A DNA stretch of 53,785 nucleotides, taken from IMG/VR virus record IMGVR_UViG_3300025646_005002, positions 1 to 53,785 of that record. One strand, 5' to 3'. The stretch's first letter is position 1. Every line of letters starts with the position of its first letter. The stretch comes from a virus (taxonomy: Duplodnaviria; Caudoviricetes). Both the position numbers and the translations under genes were made by a program. Positions 3,662 to 53,785 of the stretch are shown one piece after another. A model generated the notes under the pieces. It was not told the origin of the DNA and ran no database searches. It saw only the letters and a list, made by a program, of their open reading frames with translations.

Positions 3662-4756
3662 GTGAGATTTATTCTATTAATAATTTTACTTTTAATTTCA
3701 TGGTCAGCACAGGCCAATATTGGTGCAGTTAGTGAACTACAAGGTCAAGGTCAGATCAAACGTACCAATGGTGACAAAGTTGATCTTGAACAAAGCCTTG
3801 ATGTTTTTTCCTATGATGAAGTAATGACAGGACAAGGCAGAACTGCCATTAATTTTATTGACGACACCAGAGTAGAAGTCACAGAACATTCTAAATTAAT
3901 TATAGACGAATTTGTGTATGATCCTGCCAACAATCAAGGTGGACTAACACTCACAGCCGCATTGGGCACAGTAAGATACGCATCAGGACAAATAGCCAAA
4001 GACTACAAAGACAATGTCAAAATCAAAACACCCACAGCAACAATTGGTGTGCGTGGCACAGACTTTGCCATGATTGTGGACGAGTTGGGCGGATCAACAA
4101 TTATTTTATTGCCTTCATGTAATTCAAATGGCAACTGTGTGGTAGGTGAAATCACAGTAGATTCAGACATGGGACAGGTCATACTAAATCAAGCATTTCA
4201 AGCCACTAGAGTTGAAGTAGCAGAACGCAGACCCACTCCCACAGTGTTGCTAGAAATGGACGAATCATTTATTGGTAATTTACTCATAATATCACCACCA
4301 AGAGAAATTGACGAAGCAGAAGATCAACAATCTGTTCAAGTTATGGCAGACATATTGGGTTTGGATTTTTTAGAAATTGATGTGCTGGACCAAGACCTAC
4401 TAGCACAAGATGAACAGCAGTGGCAAACAGAACTAGACATTGATTTTTTAGCAGGTGACTTTTTAGGTGATGTACTAGCACAATTAAACAAAATATTAGC
4501 GGCAGAATTTTTAAGTGAACTAACTGATGTGTTTGTAAAGAAAGAACAAAAGATAGGACAGTTGGAAGGAAATATAATACTGTTGGATCAAGGTGCTAGT
4601 TGGTTTTTTAGACGTGAAGGATCATCTAGTGTGGTACAGTTAAAACTAAACAAAAATTATGGATACACACTTGATCTACAACAAGATGATTTTACCACAA
4701 GAGATTTTATTATAGGAGAAGGTGCTGGTAACAATATCAACATCATACAGAAATAA
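3662..4756 (+). CDS. Secreted FecR-domain protein
   Basis: GTG start, signal peptide, FecR-like core (D.V.TG.GR..I.F.DDT.V.V.E.S.L.I and IKTPTATIGVRGTDF), acidic C-terminal half. Confidence 0.8.
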   Translation: MRFILLIILLLISWSAQANIGAVSELQGQGQIKRTNGDKVDLEQSLDVFSYDEVMTGQGRTAINFIDDTRVEVTEHSKLIIDEFVYDPANNQGGLTLTAALGTVRYASGQIAKDYKDNVKIKTPTATIGVRGTDFAMIVDELGGSTIILLPSCNSNGNCVVGEITVDSDMGQVILNQAFQATRVEVAERRPTPTVLLEMDESFIGNLLIISPPREIDEAEDQQSVQVMADILGLDFLEIDVLDQDLLAQDEQQWQTELDIDFLAGDFLGDVLAQLNKILAAEFLSELTDVFVKKEQKIGQLEGNIILLDQGASWFFRREGSSSVVQLKLNKNYGYTLDLQQDDFTTRDFIIGEGAGNNINIIQK

Positions 4757-5591: not shown

Positions 5592-7634
5592 ATGAAATGG
5601 TTAACACATTGGACTGTAGCATTTTTAACACTTGCAGTTTTGATGCTGTGGGGATTTAGTGATCCTTTTGTAAAGCAGACTGCTAGGTTAAAAACATTTG
5701 ATCTAATTCAAAAATATGACACACCAACTGTCAGCAATGATATTGTGATAGTTGAATTAGATGAAAAATCAATTGAACAATACGGACAATGGCCTTGGAA
5801 GCGAACAGTATTAGCAGATATCATATGGAAGTTGCGTGAAGCAGGTGCAGGCATAATTGTATTGCCAGTTTTATTTTCAGAACAAGATAGACTAAATGGT
5901 GATATGGATCTAGCACAGGCGTTGGTTGAAAATGGTGTTGTGATAGCACAGGTAGGTACAACACAAACAAACAAAAATGCAGTGCCACGTGGTGTTGCCA
6001 AAATAGGTGATCCACTGTCTTGGTTGTTTGAATGGCCAGGCATGTTAGGACCTATAGAACTGTTTGGATTAAATGCAGACGGTGTAGGTGTAATCAATAC
6101 AGCACCAGAAATTGATGGTGTGGTAAGACGTGTGCCTTTGATTGTTACAGTTGAAGGAGAAACATATCCTGCCATAGCCATTGAAACAATACGTGTGGCC
6201 ACAGGTGCACCAAGTTATCAAGTCAAAGCAGGTCCAGGTGGTGTACAAGCAGTTCGTGTTCCTGGGTATCCTGTGATTAACACAGATGCTAACGGACAGA
6301 TATGGTTGCGTTGGAACAAACAGTTTGAAACAATAAGTGTCACAGACAGTTTTGAATCTGTGCAAGGCAAAACAGTTATTCTTGGTATCACAGCAGAAGG
6401 TATAGGATCAATCATAGCAACACCTAATGGTGAAGCATATAGTCATATACCAATAGCAGTGAGTTTACAAACAATTATCAATGGTGATTCTATAGTGCGA
6501 ACAGACTATGCAACTTTTTTAGAGTATGCAGTAACAGGAGCAGTTGCAGTGCTATTAATTTTGTTGGCGGCATTTGCACCATATTGGTTAACAGGTGCGG
6601 CAATGATTTTATTATGGTCAGGTTCAAGTTATGCTTCGTACTTTGTGTTTACAAGACATCTACAGTTATGGGATGTGAGTTGGTTAATAACTGTGTCAAC
6701 ATTGGTTTCATTCCATGCAGTGTTTAATAGATTTACCAAAGAATATTTTGAAAAACAAAAAATTAAAAAACAGTTTGCAGGTTACTGTTCTCCAACAGTT
6801 GTACGTATGCTACAAGAGAATCCAAGTTTAATTAAAGATGGTATGAAGAAAGAAGTTTCAATTTGTTTCTCAGACCTAAGAGGATTTACACCATTAGGAG
6901 AATCGTTTGGCGACGATGTTAAAGGCTTAACAAAATTAATGAATGGGTACATGGATGCCATTACACAACCTATACTTGATGCTGACGGTATGGTTATTAA
7001 GTATATCGGTGATGCAAGTATGCATATACATAATGCTCCTATAGATGACCCGCATCATCCAAGAACAGCAGTAGAAACAGGACTCAATATGTTACGTGCA
7101 GTAGAACAGTTTAATGAAAAGATTACATCAGAAGGAAGGCCACCAATTGGCATGGGTGCTGGTATCAACACAGGATTGGGTTATCTTGGTGAAATGGGAA
7201 GTACAAGCCGTCATTCCTATGACGTCCTTGGCGACGCTGTTTCGACTGCCGCCCGAATAGAAAGCAAGTGTAAAGAGTACGGTTGTTTATTGCTTGTGGG
7301 CGAGAACACCTACGATGCTACTAAAGACAACTTCTTTTACTTAAAAATAGACGAACTTGCTGTTAAAGGTAAGAGTGTTGGTATTAGAATTTACACAGTA
7401 TTAGATAATATTAAGAAAGTTGATCATAAGAGCAAAAAGGTACATGACCAAATGCATGAAGCATATAAGTCACAAAAGTTTGATGAAGCCATTTATCACT
7501 GTGAAAGATTAAAATCACACTTTGGTGGTAAGATGAAAGGCTATTATGATATGTGGATTGAACGCTGTGAGTATATGCAAACACAACAGTTACCTAAAGA
7601 TTGGAACGGTGTGTTTATTGCAACCACAAAATAA
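5592..7634 (+). CDS. CHASE2-domain class III adenylate cyclase
   Basis: CHASE2 motifs (IVIVELDEKS...GQWPWKR, DGVVRRVPL), three TM helices, cyclase motifs FSDLRGFT, IKYIGDA, YDVLGDAVSTAARIES, and VKGK. Confidence 0.92.
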   Translation: MKWLTHWTVAFLTLAVLMLWGFSDPFVKQTARLKTFDLIQKYDTPTVSNDIVIVELDEKSIEQYGQWPWKRTVLADIIWKLREAGAGIIVLPVLFSEQDRLNGDMDLAQALVENGVVIAQVGTTQTNKNAVPRGVAKIGDPLSWLFEWPGMLGPIELFGLNADGVGVINTAPEIDGVVRRVPLIVTVEGETYPAIAIETIRVATGAPSYQVKAGPGGVQAVRVPGYPVINTDANGQIWLRWNKQFETISVTDSFESVQGKTVILGITAEGIGSIIATPNGEAYSHIPIAVSLQTIINGDSIVRTDYATFLEYAVTGAVAVLLILLAAFAPYWLTGAAMILLWSGSSYASYFVFTRHLQLWDVSWLITVSTLVSFHAVFNRFTKEYFEKQKIKKQFAGYCSPTVVRMLQENPSLIKDGMKKEVSICFSDLRGFTPLGESFGDDVKGLTKLMNGYMDAITQPILDADGMVIKYIGDASMHIHNAPIDDPHHPRTAVETGLNMLRAVEQFNEKITSEGRPPIGMGAGINTGLGYLGEMGSTSRHSYDVLGDAVSTAARIESKCKEYGCLLLVGENTYDATKDNFFYLKIDELAVKGKSVGIRIYTVLDNIKKVDHKSKKVHDQMHEAYKSQKFDEAIYHCERLKSHFGGKMKGYYDMWIERCEYMQTQQLPKDWNGVFIATTK

Positions 7635-15808: not shown

Positions 15809-16032
15809 TTAATGTAGTAGAACAAATTGCAAGAATGAATCAAGTTGAACGAATTATGTTTATTCGTGATCTTGTAACCAAATGGCCGCATCTTGCCAAC
15901 GAAATTAAAGATGCAATACAGATAGAAATATTTGAACAACGAGAACAAAAAGAAAAACAAGAACTAGAAGAATACTCAAAAATGCACAGTGATGAGCCAT
16001 TAGTTCTTACCAAAGACATGGAGGTCAAATGA
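15805..16032 (+). CDS. Hypothetical protein
   Basis: GTGA overlap, AAGGAG RBS. Confidence 0.65.
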   Translation: MINVVEQIARMNQVERIMFIRDLVTKWPHLANEIKDAIQIEIFEQREQKEKQELEEYSKMHSDEPLVLTKDMEVK

Positions 16033-17525
16033 TAAACATAGATTTTTTAAATGACATAGAATCTAGTGGCGAAAGTACTTGCGAAGTACATTTAATTTAT
16101 AAAACAGGTGATGATATTGCACTATCACAATCAGCATCTATACTAGATGAAGGTACAGATGGATTGTTAAGTGAAACGTTTGAAAGAAACAGATTCAAAG
16201 GTAAATTTTTAGATAGTTTTTTTATTACATCTAATAACTTACCTTGTCACGATGCACTTTTTATATGTGTAGGAGATCCTGCTAAACTAACAGATGTAAA
16301 ACTAGAAAAAGTAGGTGGTGCAGTTTACAGTAAATTAACTGAACGAGGCACACAAGGTCGTGTGTTGTTATTTGTTGACAAAGAAATAAAATCTTCACCA
16401 ACTAATATTGCATTTGGTATGAGATTGAAAGATTACAAGTTTGATAGATACTTTACCAAAAAGGACAAAGAAGAAACATTATTTAATGTTGACATCTGTC
16501 AAGAAGATGCAGATCTAACAGTGGTAGAAGCAGATTACAAACAAAAAAATGCCATGGTAGAAGGTATTGAATTTGCTAAAAATTTAATTTCAGAACCATC
16601 TAATGTATTGTATCCTGAGTCATATGCTAATCGTGTTAAGATGCTGGAAGCCATAGGCCTTACAGTGAAAATATATGGTGAAAAAGAACTAGAAAAAATG
16701 GGTGCTGGAGCACTGTTGGCAGTGGGTCAAGGTAGTGCTAGAGAATCTAAAATGGTTGTAATGGAGTGGATGAAAGGCAAAAAGAAAGATGCACCAATGG
16801 CATTTGTTGGCAAAGGTGTATGTTTTGACACAGGCGGATATTCTATCAAACCATCTAAAGGTTTAAAAGACATGAAGTATGACATGGGCGGTTCAGCAGT
16901 GGTAGTTGGTACAATGATCAGTATTGCAAGACGTAATTTACCTGTAAATGCAGTTGGTGTTATTGGACTTGTAGAAAATATGGTGTCTAGTACAGCATAT
17001 AAACCTGGTGATGTAATCACTTCTATGAGTGGGCAAACCATTGAAATTGACAACACAGATGCTGAAGGTAGAGTTGTACTAGCAGACTGTTTATGGTACA
17101 CACAAAAAACCTATAAGCCAAAAACAATGATCAATCTAGCCACCCTAACAGGTGCAATTTCAATTGCACTTGGTGATCAACTGGCTGGTATATTTTCAAA
17201 TAACGATGCAATGAGCAAACAGTTGATTGAAGCAGGACACGAAGTAGATGAAAAAGTATGGCGTTTACCTTGCGATCCCATAGGTGAAAGATATGACACT
17301 TATGTGGATTCAACTATTGCTGACATGCACAATGTGGGCAAAGGTGGTGAAGCAAGTTCAACCACAGCGGCACAATTTTTACAGAGATTTGTAAATGATG
17401 TACCATGGACACACATTGACATAGCAGGTGTTACTTGGAACGACAAAGGTTCTATGACAGCAAAAGGCGGTGCTACCGGTTGGGGTGTTAAACTGTTAAA
17501 CAAATGGATTGATTTGAATGGCTGA
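16029..17525 (+). CDS. pepA: Leucyl aminopeptidase (M17)
   Basis: VGKGVCFDTGG, MKYDMGG, NTDAEGR, ATLTGA, HIDIAG. Confidence 0.95.
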   Translation: MINIDFLNDIESSGESTCEVHLIYKTGDDIALSQSASILDEGTDGLLSETFERNRFKGKFLDSFFITSNNLPCHDALFICVGDPAKLTDVKLEKVGGAVYSKLTERGTQGRVLLFVDKEIKSSPTNIAFGMRLKDYKFDRYFTKKDKEETLFNVDICQEDADLTVVEADYKQKNAMVEGIEFAKNLISEPSNVLYPESYANRVKMLEAIGLTVKIYGEKELEKMGAGALLAVGQGSARESKMVVMEWMKGKKKDAPMAFVGKGVCFDTGGYSIKPSKGLKDMKYDMGGSAVVVGTMISIARRNLPVNAVGVIGLVENMVSSTAYKPGDVITSMSGQTIEIDNTDAEGRVVLADCLWYTQKTYKPKTMINLATLTGAISIALGDQLAGIFSNNDAMSKQLIEAGHEVDEKVWRLPCDPIGERYDTYVDSTIADMHNVGKGGEASSTTAAQFLQRFVNDVPWTHIDIAGVTWNDKGSMTAKGGATGWGVKLLNKWIDLNG

Positions 17526-17772
17526 TGTGCCTAGTGATACAGAACCAAGTTCATACCATCATGATTTGCACCTTCAAACTATAAAGCAGGTGCATAGGCT
17601 TGAGCAAGAACTAGCATCTTTAAAACGTAAAATGTTCAAAGCAGAACAACGTGCTAAACACGAACAGTATATGCGTAGGAGATATCCAGCAGTTGAAGAG
17701 TCATACAAGCAGTATCTTATGATGATGAAATTGGTTAAAAACAACAAGGATAACAGCCAAAATAATAAATAA
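17518..17772 (+). CDS. Hypothetical coiled-coil protein
   Basis: ORF overlapping the pepA end. Confidence 0.6.
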   Translation: MADVPSDTEPSSYHHDLHLQTIKQVHRLEQELASLKRKMFKAEQRAKHEQYMRRRYPAVEESYKQYLMMMKLVKNNKDNSQNNK

Positions 17773-17805
17773 CTGGATAAATACATTTGAAGGTTATTAA
17801 TTATC

Positions 17806-18012
17806 ATGCATGAACAAGAAAATAAATTTATACAAAAATTGATTGACACAAAAGCCCAACTTACTATTTTTTTAATTAATGGTATTAAGTTAGGCGGTGT
17901 TATAACTGCAATGGATGAGAGCACATTGTATTTGCAACGTGAACAACACACGCAATTGGTATACAAAAATGCAATATCTACAATTATGCCAATTGATCCT
18001 ATTTCATTATAA
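17806..18012 (+). CDS. hfq: Hfq-like Sm protein (divergent)
   Basis: Sm1 TIFLINGIKLGGVI and Sm2 QLVYKNAISTIMP; GATAAATA upstream. Confidence 0.9.
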   Translation: MHEQENKFIQKLIDTKAQLTIFLINGIKLGGVITAMDESTLYLQREQHTQLVYKNAISTIMPIDPISL

Positions 18013-18022
18013 TAAGTTTTAA

Positions 18023-18194
18023 TATAAATATATATATCTATTTGTTAAATTTTAATAAAGGGTCTTTATTAATAACAAATATTTAGGTGTAACTTAACCT
18101 GCTGATAATATAATTATCAGAGATAAGATATAAACGGAACCCCTGTTTGAAGGGACAAATAAGTTGCTAATATTTGGCCAAAAGATCAGGGGTT
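18023..18194 (+). ncRNA. Candidate structured non-coding RNA
   Basis: TATAAATA followed by four consecutive inverted repeats in a 250-nt gap without an ORF. Confidence 0.45.
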
Positions 18195-18208
18195 TAGTGA
18201 AATTGTGC

Positions 18209-18237
18209 TTGACTTTAAAGTAAAAAAATAATAAAAT
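18209..18237 (+). promoter_or_regulatory. Sigma70-type promoter
   Basis: TTGACT-N17-TAAAAT. Confidence 0.65.
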
Positions 18238-18261: not shown

Positions 18262-18453
18262 ATGAGTACAACAAATCAACAACTATTAACATTGTTTGAA
18301 GAATACAAAGAAAACAGTGATAAGTTTGCTGAAAAAGGCAATAAGGCGGCTGGTACAAGAGCTAGAAAAGCCTTATCTGAAATCACTAAACTTGCTAAAG
18401 TAAGAAGAAAAGAAATACAAGAAGCGAAATCTACTGAAACTGCAAGTGCATAA
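18262..18453 (+). CDS. Histone H1-like (Hc1-type) basic protein
   Basis: EKGNKAAGTRARKAL...LAKVRRKE matches the Hc1 N-terminal motif; AAGGAG RBS. Confidence 0.75.
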   Translation: MSTTNQQLLTLFEEYKENSDKFAEKGNKAAGTRARKALSEITKLAKVRRKEIQEAKSTETASA

Positions 18454-18462
18454 GGATTTACT

Positions 18463-19002
18463 ATGGCGCGACCTGAAGAATATACAATTGAAAAAACTGT
18501 GTGGCGTTCAGGTCGCAAAAATTCTTATAATGATGAATTAGTAGTTGCTAAAGGAACGGTTAACAATCAACCTTGCTATGTAATGGCATGGGAAGTTGGC
18601 GCAGATAGACCAGAAACAGTATCATGGAACGGCAAAGTTTCGTATTTTCCTCGTATGCATTGGCTAGATGAAATACCAGCAGGTTATATTAAAATTTATA
18701 ATTACACAGAAGACAAAGAATTTTTTATAAAAAAAGACAAACACTATATACTACAAGATAATGATGTATATGTTAAGTTTAACAAAGATACAAATAATTT
18801 ATATCATCCTTCATTTACAAACATAACTTATAATCCTGCGGCAAAAACCAAAGCAATTAACTATGTGATGTGGTTTAATGAAAATGCTAAACAATTAGAC
18901 ATATATAAAAGATTATTAAGTACATCAAAACAAGCACGTAAACGTAGACGTAAAAGAGCAAAAAAAAGTTTAGAAAAACAGATAAATACTACAAATGATT
19001 AA
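18463..19002 (+). CDS. Hypothetical protein
   Basis: 179-aa ORF with RBS and a basic C-terminus. Confidence 0.7.
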   Translation: MARPEEYTIEKTVWRSGRKNSYNDELVVAKGTVNNQPCYVMAWEVGADRPETVSWNGKVSYFPRMHWLDEIPAGYIKIYNYTEDKEFFIKKDKHYILQDNDVYVKFNKDTNNLYHPSFTNITYNPAAKTKAINYVMWFNENAKQLDIYKRLLSTSKQARKRRRKRAKKSLEKQINTTND

Positions 19003-19315
19003 TATTACAGAAACAGCAAAAACATATTTGACAAACACAGCAGTTAAAAACAACAAACCCTATGTGGCTTTTAAAGTAAAAGGCGGCGGTTGTGCAGGCT
19101 TTCAATATGATTGGTCATTTGCTGATGAAATGTCTGACAAGTACTATGAATACGAATTAAATGAAAATAAAAAACTGCTAGTTGATAAAACAGCAGAGCT
19201 TTTTATACTTGGCAGTACCATAGACTATGTTGAAGAACTAGGTGGCAGTTATATTGCTATTAAAAATCCAAATTCAAAATCATCATGTGGTTGTGGAGAA
19301 AGTTTCAGTGCCTAA
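18995..19315 (+). CDS. iscA: A-type Fe-S carrier (IscA/SufA/HesB)
   Basis: VKGGGCAGFQY and NPNSKSSCGCGESF. Confidence 0.93.
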   Translation: MINITETAKTYLTNTAVKNNKPYVAFKVKGGGCAGFQYDWSFADEMSDKYYEYELNENKKLLVDKTAELFILGSTIDYVEELGGSYIAIKNPNSKSSCGCGESFSA

Positions 19316-19984: not shown

Positions 19985-20524
19985 ATGTCAGATGTTGGTC
20001 GTATTACAAACACAAATCAGTATGGTGAACCTATTGTGAACTGTAGTGATCTAATTGAATTAGTGTATCAAGGATATGCAATTGACAAGCTCAAAGTCAA
20101 TGACAGCAGAGTTGAAAAATATAATTCTATTGTTAATGAACTGGCATTAGATTGGCCAAATATTCAAAAGTTAACCAAAATAGATATTCCTGTTCAAGAC
20201 TATGATCGTGCTTTGCAATCTGATTGGTACATGCCCAATGAATACAAAAGCATGGATGTTGTTGCACACATAAAAAGTCTTGCAATTACAGATGAAGAGA
20301 AAAAAAGAGTTGACACAGAACTAGAATTATATGTACAATATGATTTATTAAATGTATTAAAGTTTTTAATTTATCTAATAGATACTATGAGAAAAAATGA
20401 TATTGTTTGGGGAGTAGGCAGAGGATCATCGGTATCATCATATGTGCTGTATCTACTAGGAGTTCACAAAGTAAACAGTATAAAATATGGGTTAGATATC
20501 ACTGACTTTTTGAAAGATAAATAA
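19985..20524 (+). CDS. Stand-alone fragment of DNA polymerase III alpha (DnaE-like)
   Basis: RVDTELEL...WGVGRGSSVSSYVLYLLGVHKVNSIKYGL matches the DnaE GxGRGS region; only 179 aa; own promoter TTGACA(19950)-N17-TAATAT. Confidence 0.8.
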   Translation: MSDVGRITNTNQYGEPIVNCSDLIELVYQGYAIDKLKVNDSRVEKYNSIVNELALDWPNIQKLTKIDIPVQDYDRALQSDWYMPNEYKSMDVVAHIKSLAITDEEKKRVDTELELYVQYDLLNVLKFLIYLIDTMRKNDIVWGVGRGSSVSSYVLYLLGVHKVNSIKYGLDITDFLKDK

Positions 20525-20914: not shown

Positions 20915-21268
20915 ATGCACACAGTAAAAGGCAAAATTCGTCCTTTAAGAAATAAAATTTTGGTTAAAAATATTGACCAGGGTATGCGTAAGTCTAAAGG
21001 TGGAATACTTTTACCATCGTCGGATCGTTTAGATGATGGTGGTGCTGGGGTTAGAGCCAGATGGGCAGAAGTTTATGCAGTAGGATCAGAAATTGATTAT
21101 CTTAAACCAGGAGACTTTGTGTTAATGGAACATGGACGTTGGACAAGAGGAGTTCAGGTTGAAGATGATGGCCAAGAATTTGATCTTAGAGTTGCAGACC
21201 CAAATGGAATACTTGGAACTTCTGACACTAGACCAGAAGATTTATTAGACGGTGCTCCAACATATTAA
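20915..21268 (+). CDS. groES: GroES-like co-chaperonin
   Basis: IRPLRNKILV, mobile loop KSKGGILLP, VYAVGS, LKPGDFVL. Confidence 0.85.
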   Translation: MHTVKGKIRPLRNKILVKNIDQGMRKSKGGILLPSSDRLDDGGAGVRARWAEVYAVGSEIDYLKPGDFVLMEHGRWTRGVQVEDDGQEFDLRVADPNGILGTSDTRPEDLLDGAPTY

Positions 21269-31445: not shown

Positions 31446-32591
31446 ATGAACAAAGTATTGCACTCTATTCCTGCTATATTAGCCTTGGTATTGTTTTTAT
31501 TAGTAGGCAATGAAAATAATGCTCAAGCATCACACAATGATAACAATCCAAATACTTTTAAACTTGTTGAAACAAGTTATAAAACTACGCCAGACCTAGT
31601 TGAAGATGTTATACCAACTGTGGTGTATATTTTTATGGAAAAAAATCCACAAACTGGCACTGATGAGTTTGGTGGACTACTACCAGATCAAACTACACCG
31701 TCAATAGGTGTTGGCACAGGGTTTTTTATAAATGATCAAGGATATATTGTTACCAACACACACGTGGTTCAAGACACTAAAAAGTTAGTGATATACTATT
31801 GGGATTCTCCACTAGAATATAACGAAGCACAAATAGTGGGCATGGATGAAGTGGCTGACATTGCTGTGATTAAAATTATTCCAGAAGCACCAACAGAATA
31901 TGTTGAATGGGGCAACAGTGAAGAAATTAAACTAGGTGAAGATGTTGTGGCAATTGGACATGGTCTAAGTATGCCTTGGGCAGTAACCAAAGGTATTATA
32001 AGCATGACCTATCGTCAACCAGACATGACCAAACCAATGATACTATACAACCAATCAGATACAGTTATTAATCAAGGTAACTCTGGTGGTCCGCTTTTTA
32101 ATATGCATGGCGAAGTTGTTGGAGTTAATACACTACTGTTTTCAAGAACTGGATCGTTTTCAGGAGTAGGATTTTCAGTACCATCAAACCTAGCCAAAAG
32201 ATCAGTAGAGCAAATAATGGAAACTGCTGTGATTGATGATCAAGGTAATGTAGTAGAACAAGGCTATGTAACATATCCAGCAATTGGTATTAAATTCAGC
32301 ACAGTTGAAACCCTAGAAGAAAGAAACAAACTAAAAGATCTAGGAATAGCATCTGTGATTAAAGTAAAAGAAACACCAGAAGAGGGTGCGGCCTACGAAG
32401 CAGGTTTGTTACCAGAAGATGTATTGATATCTATAGATGATGAAGAAATAGTTTCATCTATTGACTTAGTAAAGCATTTATGGTATAATAAGATAGGTGA
32501 TACAGTAAAAGTGATGGTGTATAGAAACAATGAATACATTTCACTAGATGTAACACTTAAAGAATTCAAATTTACACCAAAAGGAAAATAA
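31446..32591 (+). CDS. HtrA/DegP-like serine protease with PDZ domain
   Basis: Signal or TM segment; GTGFFI, VTNTHVV, DIAVIK, NQGNSGGPL; C-terminal PDZ. Confidence 0.92.
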   Translation: MNKVLHSIPAILALVLFLLVGNENNAQASHNDNNPNTFKLVETSYKTTPDLVEDVIPTVVYIFMEKNPQTGTDEFGGLLPDQTTPSIGVGTGFFINDQGYIVTNTHVVQDTKKLVIYYWDSPLEYNEAQIVGMDEVADIAVIKIIPEAPTEYVEWGNSEEIKLGEDVVAIGHGLSMPWAVTKGIISMTYRQPDMTKPMILYNQSDTVINQGNSGGPLFNMHGEVVGVNTLLFSRTGSFSGVGFSVPSNLAKRSVEQIMETAVIDDQGNVVEQGYVTYPAIGIKFSTVETLEERNKLKDLGIASVIKVKETPEEGAAYEAGLLPEDVLISIDDEEIVSSIDLVKHLWYNKIGDTVKVMVYRNNEYISLDVTLKEFKFTPKGK

Positions 32592-36801: not shown

Positions 36802-37683
36802 ATGAGTCAGGATCATTACAAAATACTTGGAGTATCAGAAAACGCATCGCAAGATGAAATCAAAAGAGCCTATAAAAAGTTAGCCAAGCAACACCATCCT
36901 GATATGAACGGTGGCGATGATACAGAATTTAAAAAAGTCAACGAAGCACACGATACTCTAAAAGATCAAAAGAAACGTCAGCAATATGATATGGAAAGAC
37001 AGTTTGGAGCTCAAGGAGGGCAAGGTCCTTTTAACTTTGGCCATGGTGGATTTGATGATATTATAGTTGATATGCCTGGTGGTGATTTTGGTTCTATGTT
37101 TGAACAGTTCTTTGGCGGGCCAGGAATGAGACAAACATTTAGGCAAAGAAGAGCTAAACCTTTGCGTAATCAAGATGTAAGAATTAGTTTAACAGTTTCT
37201 TTAGAAGATGTTTATTTTGGTAATACCAAAGAAGTAGTTATAAAGACACCAGATGGAAATAATCAAAATGTAAAAATTGATATACCCAAAGCCTGCGATA
37301 GTGGAACACAAATTAAATTTTCTGGTTTAGGATCAAAACAACATACTGATCTAAGACCAGGTGATTTATATGTTGTTTTGACTATTGCTGGTCATAAAAA
37401 TTTTACCAAACGTGGTAATGACCTGCTTACAAATTTAGATGTAGATATATTTGATGCATTACTAGGTACTAAAATAGAAGTAAAACATTTTAACAATACA
37501 CTAACAGTTACTATTCCACCATTAACACAATCTGATGATGTTATTAGAATTAAAGGCAAAGGAATGGTGTTAAATAATGGTACACATGGAGATTTGTATA
37601 TTAAGTTAAATTATAAAATGCCAAAAGAATTAACAGAAGAACAAAGAGAATTAATTAAAAAGATCAAAGGAGTCAACCAATGA
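36802..37683 (+). CDS. Class II J-domain protein (DnaJ/CbpA-like)
   Basis: J domain with HPD, G/F-rich region, C-terminal domain, no zinc finger. Confidence 0.92.
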   Translation: MSQDHYKILGVSENASQDEIKRAYKKLAKQHHPDMNGGDDTEFKKVNEAHDTLKDQKKRQQYDMERQFGAQGGQGPFNFGHGGFDDIIVDMPGGDFGSMFEQFFGGPGMRQTFRQRRAKPLRNQDVRISLTVSLEDVYFGNTKEVVIKTPDGNNQNVKIDIPKACDSGTQIKFSGLGSKQHTDLRPGDLYVVLTIAGHKNFTKRGNDLLTNLDVDIFDALLGTKIEVKHFNNTLTVTIPPLTQSDDVIRIKGKGMVLNNGTHGDLYIKLNYKMPKELTEEQRELIKKIKGVNQ

Positions 37684-38159
37684 AACTAGTATATGCACCA
37701 GCAGATATACTAAAGAAACCTACAATAAGTGTTGACGAAGACATGGATAATGTAGTAAAATTAGCAGAACAAATGCACACAATCATGTCACAACATAACG
37801 GTATTGGTCTTGCGGCTCCGCAGGTAGGTATTGATAAAAGTTTCTTTATTGTTGGTGATAAAACACGTTATAAACTAGCAGTTAATCCTAAAATCATTGA
37901 ATACAGTGAAGAAAAAGGTCTTATAACAGAAGGCTGTTTGAGTTTTCCTGGATTGTTCTTAAAAGTTTTACGTCCACTTAATTGTGTTGTAGAATATGTA
38001 AATAATAAAGGAGAAACAGTTAATGAAAAACTTGAAGGAATGATGAGCAGGGTTTTTCAACACGAAACTGATCATTTAAATGGTGTTACATTTGATACAT
38101 TGGTTTCTAAACTGAAACTTGATATGGCAATAAAAAAGAGAGATAAGAGGTTAAAATAA
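37680..38159 (+). CDS. def: Peptide deformylase
   Basis: GIGLAAPQVG, EGCLS, QHETDHLNG. Confidence 0.96.
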   Translation: MKLVYAPADILKKPTISVDEDMDNVVKLAEQMHTIMSQHNGIGLAAPQVGIDKSFFIVGDKTRYKLAVNPKIIEYSEEKGLITEGCLSFPGLFLKVLRPLNCVVEYVNNKGETVNEKLEGMMSRVFQHETDHLNGVTFDTLVSKLKLDMAIKKRDKRLK

Positions 38160-40388
38160 ATGGCTGAAGAATACGATCCAATAGAATCCGTACTAGATAA
38201 AGCAATGGAGTATGCTTCAGAACGCAATCACGAGTATGTGGTACTTGAGCATTTACTACTAGCACTATCTAATGAAAAAGAAATACAATCATTAATATCT
38301 GATGTAGATGGCGATATTGAACAAATTATGGCTGATTGTATGGAATATTTAGATAACAATTTAAAAGACATTGTTGTTGAATCAAGTGAGGCTCCAAGAA
38401 AAACATCAGCACTAGAAAGAGTTTTTAACAGAGCAGTTACACAGGTTATATTTTCAGGTAGAAAAAAATTAACAATCAAAGACATATTTGTTAGTTTATT
38501 AAGTGAAAAGAATAGTTATGCATTATACTTCTTAAAGAAAAATAACATTACAAGACAGTCAGTTATTGAGCAACTTACAAAAGAACGTTATGGCGAAGAT
38601 GTAGGTTTACAAGAAAGACAGCAAGGTGGAGAGCCAGGTGGCGGAATACGTTTTGAAGATTATTGTACTGATCTAAACAAAGAAGCTAAAGAAGGTAGAA
38701 TTGATACATTAATTGGTAGAGAACCAGAACTTGATGACATTGTGCATATTCTTGCAAGACGTAAAAAGAACAATTGTATTGTTGTAGGTGAACCAGGTGT
38801 TGGTAAAACAGCAATTGCAGAAGGTATTGCTAAAAAGATTGTAGACAAACAAGTTCCAGATGCAATCAAAGACAAAACGGTTTATTCATTAGATGTTGCT
38901 TCGCTAGTAGCAGGTACAAAATTTAGAGGTGATTTTGAAGAACGTGCAAAAATAGTTTTAGAAAAATTACAAAAACAAAAAGATGTTATATTGTTCATTG
39001 ACGAAGTGCATATGATTATGGGTGCAGGCAGTGCCGGCCAATCAAATATGGACTTTGGTACACTATTAAAACCAATACTTGCAAAAGGTAAACTATTGTG
39101 TATTGGTACAACAACAATTGAAGAATACAGAGAAAACTTTGAAAAAGATCGTGCATTAATGAGACGTTTCCAAAGATTAGATTTAGGTGAGCCAAGCAAA
39201 ACAGATGCTAAACTGATCTTAAATGGTATTCTTACATACTATGAAAAATTCCACCAAACCAAATATGATGAGGGGTGTGTTGATCTAGCAGTTGATCTAG
39301 CAGATAGATTTATACACAACAAGTTTTTACCTGACAAAGCAATTGATGTTATTGATGCCGCAGGTGCGAAAGCAAAATTGGCACAAGCACCGTCAGTTAC
39401 TAAACATATGATTCAACAACAGGTAAGTAAAATTTCAAATGTACCTATGGATGTTATTGATGAAAAACAAACTGACAACTATGCTGGTCTAGAAGGCAAA
39501 GTAAAAACCAAAGTGTACGGTCAAAACGAAGCAATTGAAAAACTAGTTGATTCTATTATGATTGCAAAAGCAGGACTAAGACCAGATAATAAACCAATTG
39601 GTTCTTATTTGTTTGTAGGTCCAACAGGTGTTGGTAAAACAGAAGTTTGTAGACAACTAGCAGAAGCATTAGGTATTAAATTATTAAAATATGACATGTC
39701 AGAATATCAAGAAAGACATTCAGTATCAAAATTAATTGGTGCGCCTCCTGGTTATGTAGGTTACGCAGAAGGATCAATTGGATCAGGACAACTAATCAAC
39801 GATGTAGAAGACAATCCAAACTGTGTGCTACTACTTGATGAAGTTGAAAAGGCCGCACCAGAAGTATTACAAGTATTGCTACAAGTAATGGATGATGGTA
39901 AACTAACATCATCAACAGGTAAAACTGTGATGTTTAACAAGGTTATTTTGTGTTTAACTTCTAACTTAGGTGCACAGGCAAGTGAAAAACCCCCGATGGG
40001 TATTGGGGTTCCTGACTCAGTAAACAAAACGGATGATTTTGTAAAAGACTTCTTTGCACCTGAGTTTAGAAATAGACTTGATGCAACAATACAGTTTAAT
40101 AAACTATCAAAAGACAATATTTTAAAAATTGTTCATAAAGTTAAAGATGAAACAAACGAAATGCTCAAAAACAAAAATGTTATTGTGGTGCTTGATGATA
40201 CCGCGGCGAGTTGGATTGCAGACAAAGGATTTGATCCGGCAATGGGTGCAAGACCAATGCAGAGAATATTTGATCAAAATATTAAACGCCCACTGTCAAA
40301 AGAAATTTTATTTGGTAAACTGATTAATGGCGGAACAGTGATTATTAAAGCAGTAAATGATAAACTTGAAATAGAATATAAACAGTAA
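38160..40388 (+). CDS. clpA: ATP-dependent Clp protease ATPase ClpA
   Basis: Clp N domain, two AAA+ modules (GEPGVGKT, GPTGVGKT), GAPPGYVG, MGI ClpP-docking-like loop, no ClpB middle domain. Confidence 0.93.
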   Translation: MAEEYDPIESVLDKAMEYASERNHEYVVLEHLLLALSNEKEIQSLISDVDGDIEQIMADCMEYLDNNLKDIVVESSEAPRKTSALERVFNRAVTQVIFSGRKKLTIKDIFVSLLSEKNSYALYFLKKNNITRQSVIEQLTKERYGEDVGLQERQQGGEPGGGIRFEDYCTDLNKEAKEGRIDTLIGREPELDDIVHILARRKKNNCIVVGEPGVGKTAIAEGIAKKIVDKQVPDAIKDKTVYSLDVASLVAGTKFRGDFEERAKIVLEKLQKQKDVILFIDEVHMIMGAGSAGQSNMDFGTLLKPILAKGKLLCIGTTTIEEYRENFEKDRALMRRFQRLDLGEPSKTDAKLILNGILTYYEKFHQTKYDEGCVDLAVDLADRFIHNKFLPDKAIDVIDAAGAKAKLAQAPSVTKHMIQQQVSKISNVPMDVIDEKQTDNYAGLEGKVKTKVYGQNEAIEKLVDSIMIAKAGLRPDNKPIGSYLFVGPTGVGKTEVCRQLAEALGIKLLKYDMSEYQERHSVSKLIGAPPGYVGYAEGSIGSGQLINDVEDNPNCVLLLDEVEKAAPEVLQVLLQVMDDGKLTSSTGKTVMFNKVILCLTSNLGAQASEKPPMGIGVPDSVNKTDDFVKDFFAPEFRNRLDATIQFNKLSKDNILKIVHKVKDETNEMLKNKNVIVVLDDTAASWIADKGFDPAMGARPMQRIFDQNIKRPLSKEILFGKLINGGTVIIKAVNDKLEIEYKQ

Positions 40389-53701: not shown

Positions 53702-53709
53702 TATAAATA
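53702..53709 (+). promoter_or_regulatory. T4-late-like promoter
   Basis: TATAAATA 5 nt before the riboswitch P1. Confidence 0.65.
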
Positions 53710-53714
53710 TTGTA

Positions 53715-53760
53715 CGTTCATCCTATCAAGGACGGAAGTAGCATAATGCGAAGGAACGCA
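53715..53760 (+). ncRNA. Glutamine riboswitch (glnA motif)
   Basis: P1 CGTTC/GAACG, P2 TCCT/AGGA, junction CGGAAGTA, P3 GCA/TGC, GAAG; a three-way junction with E-loop as in glnA RNAs. Confidence 0.82.
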
Positions 53761-53785
53761 CCTAACTTTAACCAAAGGAGGGTGA

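Follow-up and report, generated by a model that had tools for sequence, protein, structure and literature searches.

A Clade of Phage-Encoded Hfq Proteins With a Conserved Distal Face and Replaced Proximal and Rim Residues

The hfq Locus and Its Gene Neighborhood

The window, i.e. the whole stretch of 53,785 nucleotides that was analyzed, is an IMG/VR virus record (IMGVR_UViG_3300025646_005002) with an estimated completeness of 16% and a G+C content of 34%, in which all genes lie on one strand. It carries an hfq gene in the following setting:

16029..17525, + strand: leucyl aminopeptidase (PepA, M17; Pfam PF00883, E 1.2e-118), the conserved upstream neighbor
17518..17772, + strand: 84-aa ORF directly upstream of hfq, with no Pfam or PHROG match
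17776..17783, + strand: GATAAATA, one mismatch from TATAAATA, 23 nt before the hfq start; candidate late promoter
17789..17793, + strand: GAAGG, resembling a ribosome-binding site, 12 nt upstream of the ATG; both subclades have AAGG or AGG here
17806..18012, + strand: hfq, 68 aa, Sm core only, without C-terminal tail
18023..18030, + strand: TATAAATA, 11 nt past the hfq stop; candidate late promoter for the downstream RNA
18036..18199, + strand: structured RNA region between hfq and Hc1 (MFE -44 kcal/mol, z -4.25)
18132..18199, + strand: 68-nt two-stem hairpin at the 3' end of the structured RNA
18209..18237, + strand: sigma-70-like promoter TTGACT-17-TAAAAT before Hc1 (consensus scan 10/12), conserved in the intergenic alignment
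18262..18453, + strand: Hc1 histone H1-like protein, 63 aa (Pfam PF07432, E 3.5e-19), the next gene after hfq

The order PepA, 84-aa ORF, hfq, a spacer of 249-320 nt, Hc1, a 179-aa ORF, IscA and two small ORFs is kept in every related locus that reaches far enough. By tblastn the 84-aa ORF is found in 34 of 40 related loci; five of the six loci without a match start less than 100 nt before hfq, while the sixth (L151) includes 254 nt upstream and still gives none. Hc1 lies next to hfq in 36 of the 40 loci, the remaining four ending less than 300 nt past hfq, and is preceded by a strong ribosome-binding site in the window. A deeper viral lineage (L003-L005, described below) keeps the order of hfq, spacer, Hc1, ORF and IscA. 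No match was obtained in PHROGs for seven proteins neighboring hfq.

The IscA-like gene of the block behind Hc1 (18995-19315, +) is one of two iron-sulfur cluster genes in the window, the other being a class-V aminotransferase of the cysteine desulfurase type (368-1576, +). A 179-aa ORF at 19985-20524 (+) matches only the start of the DNA polymerase III alpha NTPase domain (profile positions 18-95 of 260) and, since it is conserved in the deeper lineage (L003, 10020-10592), is a stand-alone fragment rather than the product of a recent break. Further genes encode curli secretion proteins CsgF and CsgG, a FecR-domain protein and a CHASE2-adenylate/guanylate cyclase (1673-2955, 3662-4756 and 5592-7634, +), which is unusual phage cargo, as well as a protein-quality-control set comprising a GroES-like protein, an HtrA-type protease with PDZ domain, DnaJ, peptide deformylase and a ClpA/ClpB-type double AAA+ ATPase (20915-21268, 31446-32591 and 36802-40388, +). 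At the very end of the window lies a glutamine riboswitch aptamer (53713-53762, +; Rfam RF01739, 56.5 bits versus a threshold of 35), directly preceded by an exact TATAAATA at 53702-53709; the gene that it controls is beyond the window.

A True Hfq Reduced to the Sm Core

The hfq product matches Pfam PF17209 with 67.5 bits (E 7.7e-19, cut-off 27) and lies just over the cut-off of TIGR02383 (64.2 bits versus 61.7), while the stricter equivalog NF001602 is not reached (66.6 bits versus 95). The scores also stay below the cut-offs of Pfam Phage_Hfq PF23874 (14 versus 24.2) and of the cyanobacterial Hfq-related families NF047718 (24.3 versus 52) and PF21979 (24.1 versus 27), and PHROGs gave no match below E 0.03. 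The window protein is thus a true PF17209 Hfq, placed outside the Phage_Hfq and cyanobacterial Hfq-related families. Its best solved relative by HMMER is the Hfq of Caulobacter crescentus (6gwk, E 1.5e-14). An AlphaFold2 model, built on an alignment of 72 sequences (pLDDT 95.2), consists of one helix (residues 3-14) and five strands, i.e. the Sm fold, and its top Foldseek match is again 6gwk (TM 0.95, rmsd 0.6 A, 45-47% identity). The fold matches include 8bvj, by its title a solved Hfq-Crc-mRNA repression complex. Since the protein stops right behind the Sm core, it has no C-terminal tail.

Residue Map of the RNA-Binding Surfaces

Residues were assigned from a HMMER alignment to an E. coli-type chain (u71484), whose letters match the E. 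coli residue names given in the available part of PMC5379935, and to Caulobacter Hfq 6gwk. The correspondence is as follows (phage = E. coli numbering):

Proximal residues: E5=Q8, N6=D9, S39=F42, K54=K56, N55=H57
Rim residues: I13=R16, D14=R17, K16=R19, M36=F39
Distal residues: F22=Y25, G26=G29, I27=I30, K28=K31, Q50=Q52, T59=T61
Other residue: Y53=Y55

All seven substitutions that a first-pass annotation had read from the window protein (Q8E, D9N, R16I, R17D, F39M, F42S and H57N) are present in this alignment, and the distal residues that it listed as retained (F at position 25, G29, I30, K31, Q52 and T61) are indeed kept. In the uridine pocket Q8/F42/K56/H57 is changed to E/S/K/N, leaving K56 as the sole survivor; in the available text of PMC5379935, F42 provides uracil stacking, Q8 base specificity and H57 the reading of the free terminal 3'-OH. 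As a consequence of the last change, the Sm2 motif YKHAI reads YKNAI, with N in 55 of the 56 clade members introduced below. The lateral pocket, which the same text describes as made of N13, R16, R17, S38 and F39 (PMC5379935), reads together with the arginine patch Q/I/D/A/M, so that none of the five residues is kept; the changes N13 to Q and S38 to A had gone unnamed in the first-pass annotation. A lysine is retained at the R19 position, as is R45, which aligns with R50 of Caulobacter Hfq. Overall, the Sm core has become acidic, with a median net charge of -1 and a pI of 5.6 in the clade versus +4 and a pI of 9.9 in alphaproteobacterial Hfq.

By contrast, the distal site (Y/F25, G29, I30, K31, L32, Q33, Q52, T61) retains seven of its eight residues, which are invariant or nearly so in the clade. 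Position 33 is G in the window protein and S in 52 of the 56 clade members, whereas it is Q in all 115 alphaproteobacterial loci compared. In the available part of PMC5379935, this position is credited with the specificity for adenine at the first of the distal A sites, and with S or G in its place the motif bound by the phage Hfq may differ from the classical A-R-N.

Conservation of the Pattern in the Phage Clade

A search of 5.8 billion proteins with the window protein returned 62 matches, 56 of which are 68-aa proteins of 65-100% identity; the other six were set aside, being 83-104-aa relatives (P0057-59), sequences that look frameshifted (P0060-61) or a distant match (P0062). The clade counts given here rest on the 56 cluster representatives. 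In a representative library of 1.84 billion proteins the clade forms one 50% cluster with 123.6 bits, the next single-domain Hfq scoring about 69 bits. Within the clade, the Q8 position is E in 54 members and the H57 position N in 55; the R16 position is I, L or V in all 56 and the R17 position D or E in 52. Position 42 is aromatic in none of the 56 (S in 28, N in 17, T in five, others in the rest), and the F39 position is variable, while F25, N28, G29, K31, L32, D40, Y55 and T61 are invariant. Proximal and rim positions are therefore either replaced and fixed (E5, N55, I13) or freely varying (6, 14, 16, 36, 38, 39), whereas amino-acid changes in the distal face and the beta4-beta5 strands are confined to position 33 and one I/V change. 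The one-faced pattern is a fixed trait of the clade rather than a quirk of a single sequence, and the description of the window protein as a one-faced Hfq, which the first-pass annotation had based on that sequence, is borne out by the replacement or drift of proximal and rim residues and the retention of the distal face across the clade.

Among viral sequences, the single-protein query gave no confirmed relative and an alignment query gave five. The deeper lineage L003-L005 (contigs of 38-124 kb) encodes an Hfq 53% identical to that of the window, with E8, M16, S42 and D57. Since this lineage shares both the one-faced state and the gene order, both hfq and this state are old in the phage group. 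Deposited phage genomes yielded no close relative, and the five records obtained are all at 33-40% identity; they include two Salmonella assemblies and two Acinetobacter records, and the fifth, 'Bacteriophage sp.' MT835489, encodes a canonical Hfq with Q8, R16, K17, F39, Y42 and H57. In the 128 nearest other single-domain representatives, Q8 is found in 110, F42 in 93 and H57 in 116. Some metagenome Hfqs and tandem Hfqs, which form a minority, are similarly degenerate, so that this type is not unique to the phage clade. Many of the top-scoring relatives (P0063-P0076 and others) are tandem two-domain Hfqs of 140-200 aa, in which one or both domains have degenerate proximal and rim residues.

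Selection on hfq Codons

Selection was examined on 41 hfq copies (39 clade metagenome loci, the window and L002), which comprise 34 distinct DNA sequences. The ORF is intact in all 41. Pairwise dN/dS (Nei-Gojobori) is 0.09 at the median and reaches at most 0.21, calculated from 425 usable of 561 pairs (133 were saturated and three too close). Parsimony on a FastTree tree assigns 319 synonymous and 135 nonsynonymous changes to hfq, and their distribution differs strongly between the surfaces: the twelve proximal and rim codons have 61 nonsynonymous versus 40 synonymous changes, and the nine distal codons 4 versus 49 (Fisher p 4e-11). Codons 48-62, covering beta4, the YKNAI loop and beta5, have accumulated 72 synonymous changes and not a single nonsynonymous one. 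At N55 five synonymous and no nonsynonymous changes are found, and E5 has a single change, whereas positions 6, 14, 16, 36, 38 and 39 show 6-9 nonsynonymous changes each. The hfq ORF is hence a real gene under selection and no chance ORF. Constraint is relaxed on its rim and aromatic platform, whereas the residues of the pore have become fixed in another state. Because E5 and N55 are fixed instead of drifting, the proximal face may be repurposed rather than just erased; their fixation agrees equally well with loss and with a new role for the pore region.

Cellular Hfqs, Origin of the Gene and Host Signals

The closest longer relative, P0057, leads to the Alphaproteobacteria. When an even sample of 401 alphaproteobacterial genomes was searched with the window protein, 351 matched (a tally that takes in G045 and G245, which are flagged unpublished and enter no other result) and 50 gave no Hfq match to this query; among the matches listed, none exceeds 58% identity to the window protein. 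Residues were counted in 115 alphaproteobacterial loci, consisting of the best 80 matches to P0057, the best 30 to the window protein and five second fetches of the same gene, which makes them the nearest relatives of the phage Hfq and no random sample. These loci have Q8 and F39 in 115, H57 in 113, R16 in 107 and F42 in 101. The first-pass annotation had considered that the substitutions might simply be typical of the Hfq of the host lineage; judged by these closest cellular Hfqs, this does not apply to Q8E or to the loss of F39 (0/115 each), nor to H57, which is absent in 2/115 and replaced by N in no cellular locus examined, and it applies in part to F42 (lost in 14/115) and R16 (lost in 8/115). 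The full substitution pattern is thus atypical of the nearest cellular Hfqs.

Five Hfqs from small alphaproteobacterial genomes of 1.2-1.7 Mb (L097, L108, L106, L110 and L093) are without F42 and the rim arginines while having Q8, F39 and H57, and are similar to the phage Hfq around the lost residues. Such proteins could be natural intermediates, perhaps also of the donor type, and the F42 and rim losses may, judging from these sequences, pre-date the transfer to the phage. In a tree that places the phage clade with other degenerate Hfqs (SH-like support 0.85), these small-genome Hfqs adjoin the group holding the clade; no donor is drawn from this tree, since it has 68 columns only and may reflect long-branch attraction. 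In our best reading, the phage lineage acquired an alphaproteobacterial-type hfq a single time and has retained it ever since.

Clade members come from marine metagenomes, on contigs of up to 328 kb, and the carrier lineage would be marine jumbo phages of about 330 kb and 34% G+C. The B-family polymerase is nearest to those of jumbo phages of Rhizobiales (Sinorhizobium phage Phosso, 52%; Agrobacterium phage Atu_ph07, 46%), which makes a host with an alpha-type Hfq possible. One clade relative is binned in a Crocinitomicaceae MAG (TMED45), and a host search with the cysteine desulfurase named this same MAG, itself a holder of the clade Hfq, as the sole organism. A comparison of PepA with ten alphaproteobacterial genomes gave 42-50% identity in seven, 27-29% over short stretches in two and no match in one, so that no lineage stands out.

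Promoter-Like Motifs and the Structured RNA

The sequence TATAAATA, which we take to be a T4-type late promoter, occurs in five exact copies in the window, all on the + strand, and the copy behind hfq is conserved in an intergenic alignment of 33 distinct sequences. Its variant GATAAATA is found in 30/30 distinct upstream sequences that reach that far, from both subclades. ATAAATA is present 15 times on the + strand and never on the - strand, compared with 31.5 +/- 5.4 expected on both strands, i.e. it is depleted overall, and its copies lie mostly just before genes or RNAs, including the tRNA-Ala at 257. ATAAATA looks like the late-promoter core of this phage, and from the T4-type consensus together with the motif statistics we infer late expression of hfq. 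The sigma-70-like promoter before Hc1 is absent in L003 of the deeper lineage.

Of 200 shuffles of the RNA at 18036..18199 none folds as well, and no Rfam family matches this region. The 68-nt hairpin at its 3' end aligns in 29 distinct copies without indels and comprises 19 pairs, ten of which show a compensatory change, with 97.1% of the cells paired; its covariation score of 0.438 compares with 0.202 in shuffles, where 0/500 reach 0.438, and with at most 0.153 when the structure is slid. The window and L002 each have only one copy of the hairpin, and the bases of its UUUAGUG tail are paired, for which reasons a generic repeated terminator was rejected. Searching L003-L005 with the hairpin model gave no match; in L003 a similar outer stem is visible by eye, and a similar hairpin runs directly into the Hc1 leader. 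The A-rich linker before the hairpin was considered as a conserved distal-face site and dropped as inconsistent, being A-richer than the rest of the spacer in only 24 of 35 sequences. Runs of (ARN)4AR number 51 in the window, 47 of them on the coding strand, against an expectation of 29.8 +/- 6.7, an excess that is weak evidence and may only reflect Lys/Asn-rich codons, since the runs lie mostly inside coding sequence.

A Proposed Ring Binding A-Rich RNA and Its Alternatives

Mapped onto the known surfaces, the phage Hfq retains the Sm fold, the subunit-joining strands and nearly all of the distal face, and has lost the F42 aromatic platform, the specificity residue Q8, the 3'-OH reader H57, the whole lateral pocket and arginine patch, and the C-terminal tail. 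Such a protein would form a ring, for which the lack of nonsynonymous changes in codons 48-62 is indirect evidence. The ring would be unable to grip the U-tails of sRNAs or to catalyze annealing, and its distal face would take up single-stranded A-rich RNA with no need for small RNAs; it would repress the translation of selected mRNAs or protect them, most likely at a late stage of infection. Phage transcripts are candidate targets, among them the downstream structured RNA and the Hc1 leader. Among the Hfqs of cells, conservation is highest at the uridine pore, whereas the distal face varies (PMC6561178, available text), and the phage Hfq inverts this pattern, which argues for a ring that neither holds sRNA tails nor anneals. 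Furthermore, annealing activity tracks the number of rim arginines, and Hfqs without them may serve other roles (PMC6561178, same text). The strict conservation of the distal face suggests that selection maintains RNA binding itself, and binding of A-rich RNA can reasonably be inferred from the residues kept; the available parts of four papers offer precedent for sRNA-independent action via the distal face (PMC5580658, PMC5006887, PMC6348989, PMC7987339). We give roughly even credence to the phage Hfq being a functional ring that binds A-rich RNA independently of sRNAs, unable to hold sRNA U-tails or to anneal, and it probably works differently from any Hfq studied so far.

Alternatively, homomeric phage rings could act as a competitive sponge that sequesters the A-rich sites of host mRNAs and class II sRNAs, for which no mixed rings are needed. 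The conservation of the distal face is consistent with this, as are the rim and proximal losses, which would make bound RNA a dead end for annealing (PMC6561178, available text), and the toxicity of an overexpressed plasmid-borne Hfq, exerted via distal-face residues (PMC5348863, available text). However, nothing ties the phage Hfq to host rather than phage RNA, late expression would leave little time to affect host regulation, and the changed position 33 may shift the motif away from that of the host, and we consider such a sponge unlikely.

A minor share of probability likewise goes to an adaptor ring whose distal face holds RNA while fixed E5, K54 and N55 and the acidic surface of the proximal and rim face bind a protein or another ligand. 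The fixation of E5 (E in 54/56 members) and N55 (five synonymous, no nonsynonymous changes), the always aliphatic residue 13 and the switch of core charge from +4 to -1 point in this direction, and so do the position of hfq, always between the same small ORF and Hc1, and the presence of the Hfq-Crc-mRNA complex 8bvj, identified by its title, among the fold matches. On the other hand, the free variation of positions 6, 14, 16, 36, 38 and 39, with 6-9 nonsynonymous changes each, is unusual for a protein-docking surface, and no candidate partner was identified.

There is a slim chance that hfq, the covarying RNA and Hc1 constitute one regulatory module older than the 68-aa clade, in which binding of the one-faced Hfq to the leader would set when Hc1 is translated, so that phage DNA is condensed only late; a partner from phage or host might attach to the altered, acidic proximal face. 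In Chlamydia, hctA is under sRNA control, and an Hfq-Hc1 module would be the protein-based counterpart.

The first-pass annotation had also raised the possibility that phage subunits enter host Hfq hexamers as a dominant-negative poison and shut down host sRNA regulation; each mixed ring would then have broken uridine pockets and rim patches. The strands that link the subunits hardly differ from their alphaproteobacterial counterparts, codons 48-62 being clade-invariant and differing from the alphaproteobacterial consensus essentially only at H57N, and the Rhizobiales-jumbo-like polymerase allows for a host with an alpha-type Hfq; beyond this compatible interface nothing speaks for mixed hexamers. 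A pure poison subunit would do with the interface alone; of all surfaces, however, it is the distal one that is conserved most strictly (4 nonsynonymous versus 49 synonymous changes). In addition, the promoter-like motif is of late type, whereas host shut-off would be expected early, one relative is binned with a Crocinitomicaceae MAG, and 50/401 alphaproteobacterial genomes gave no Hfq match with this query. Taken with these points, poisoning of host hexamers appears very unlikely. Finally, a decaying passenger gene without function, which the degraded look of three functional surfaces might suggest, is refuted by the selection data (dN/dS 0.09, fifteen consecutive codons with 72 synonymous and no nonsynonymous changes, 41/41 ORFs intact) and by synteny kept across lineages whose Hfqs are only 53% identical, and its probability is close to nil.

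Implications and Comparison With Known Hfq Systems

Hfq is a central hub of bacterial post-transcriptional control, and to our knowledge only laboratory mutants had separated its three RNA surfaces until now. With the phage Hfq, such a separation of function would exist in nature, in a stable form and under strong selection, among ocean phages that are abundant and uncultured. If A-rich RNA is its sole ligand, these phages use an RNA chaperone scaffold for sRNA-independent control, and the protein is a ready tool to isolate distal-face function; if host Hfq is disturbed instead, the protein would be a phage takeover factor of a new type. A literature search that had most subscription journals outside its reach found no published phage-encoded Hfq of this type.

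Sm-fold relatives of Hfq are also found in the cyanobacterial Hfq-related proteins (NF047718, PF21979) and in Phage_Hfq (PF23874), and the former have non-canonical RNA sites. Gram-positive-type Hfqs with few rim arginines keep the uridine pocket, unlike the phage clade, which is without both the uridine pocket and the arginine patch. The likeness to these Hfqs is the missing patch, which predicts little annealing (PMC6561178, available text). Hfq3 of plasmid pXO1 is likewise an Hfq of a mobile element with a cell effect via distal-face residues, but it is of Gram-positive type and plasmid-borne, the available text does not report its proximal pocket as lost, and its kinship to the phage Hfq is at the family level only (PMC5348863).

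The Hfq of Caulobacter crescentus (6gwk; PMC6561178, available text) is the best match in sequence and structure, sharing F at position 25, the beta4-beta5 strands and R50 (R45 in the phage). It keeps Q8, F39, F42 and H57, however, which the phage Hfq does not, and its basic rim residues R18, K19, K21 and R49 correspond to I, D, K and Q in the phage protein. In addition, the acidic C-terminal tip of Caulobacter Hfq gates the rim, according to the same text, whereas the phage Hfq has no tail and its core itself is acidic. In terms of mechanism, the phage Hfq most likely works, by analogy, like the sRNA-independent repression seen for E. coli mutS, IS10 transposase and hfq autoregulation, and for Pseudomonas Hfq-Crc, where, as far as the available parts of the sources describe it, the distal face binds A-rich sites near ribosome-binding sites without an sRNA (PMC5580658, PMC5006887, PMC6348989, 8bvj). 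Elsewhere such distal-face repression is a side activity of a three-faced Hfq, whereas in the phage Hfq it would be the sole activity left.
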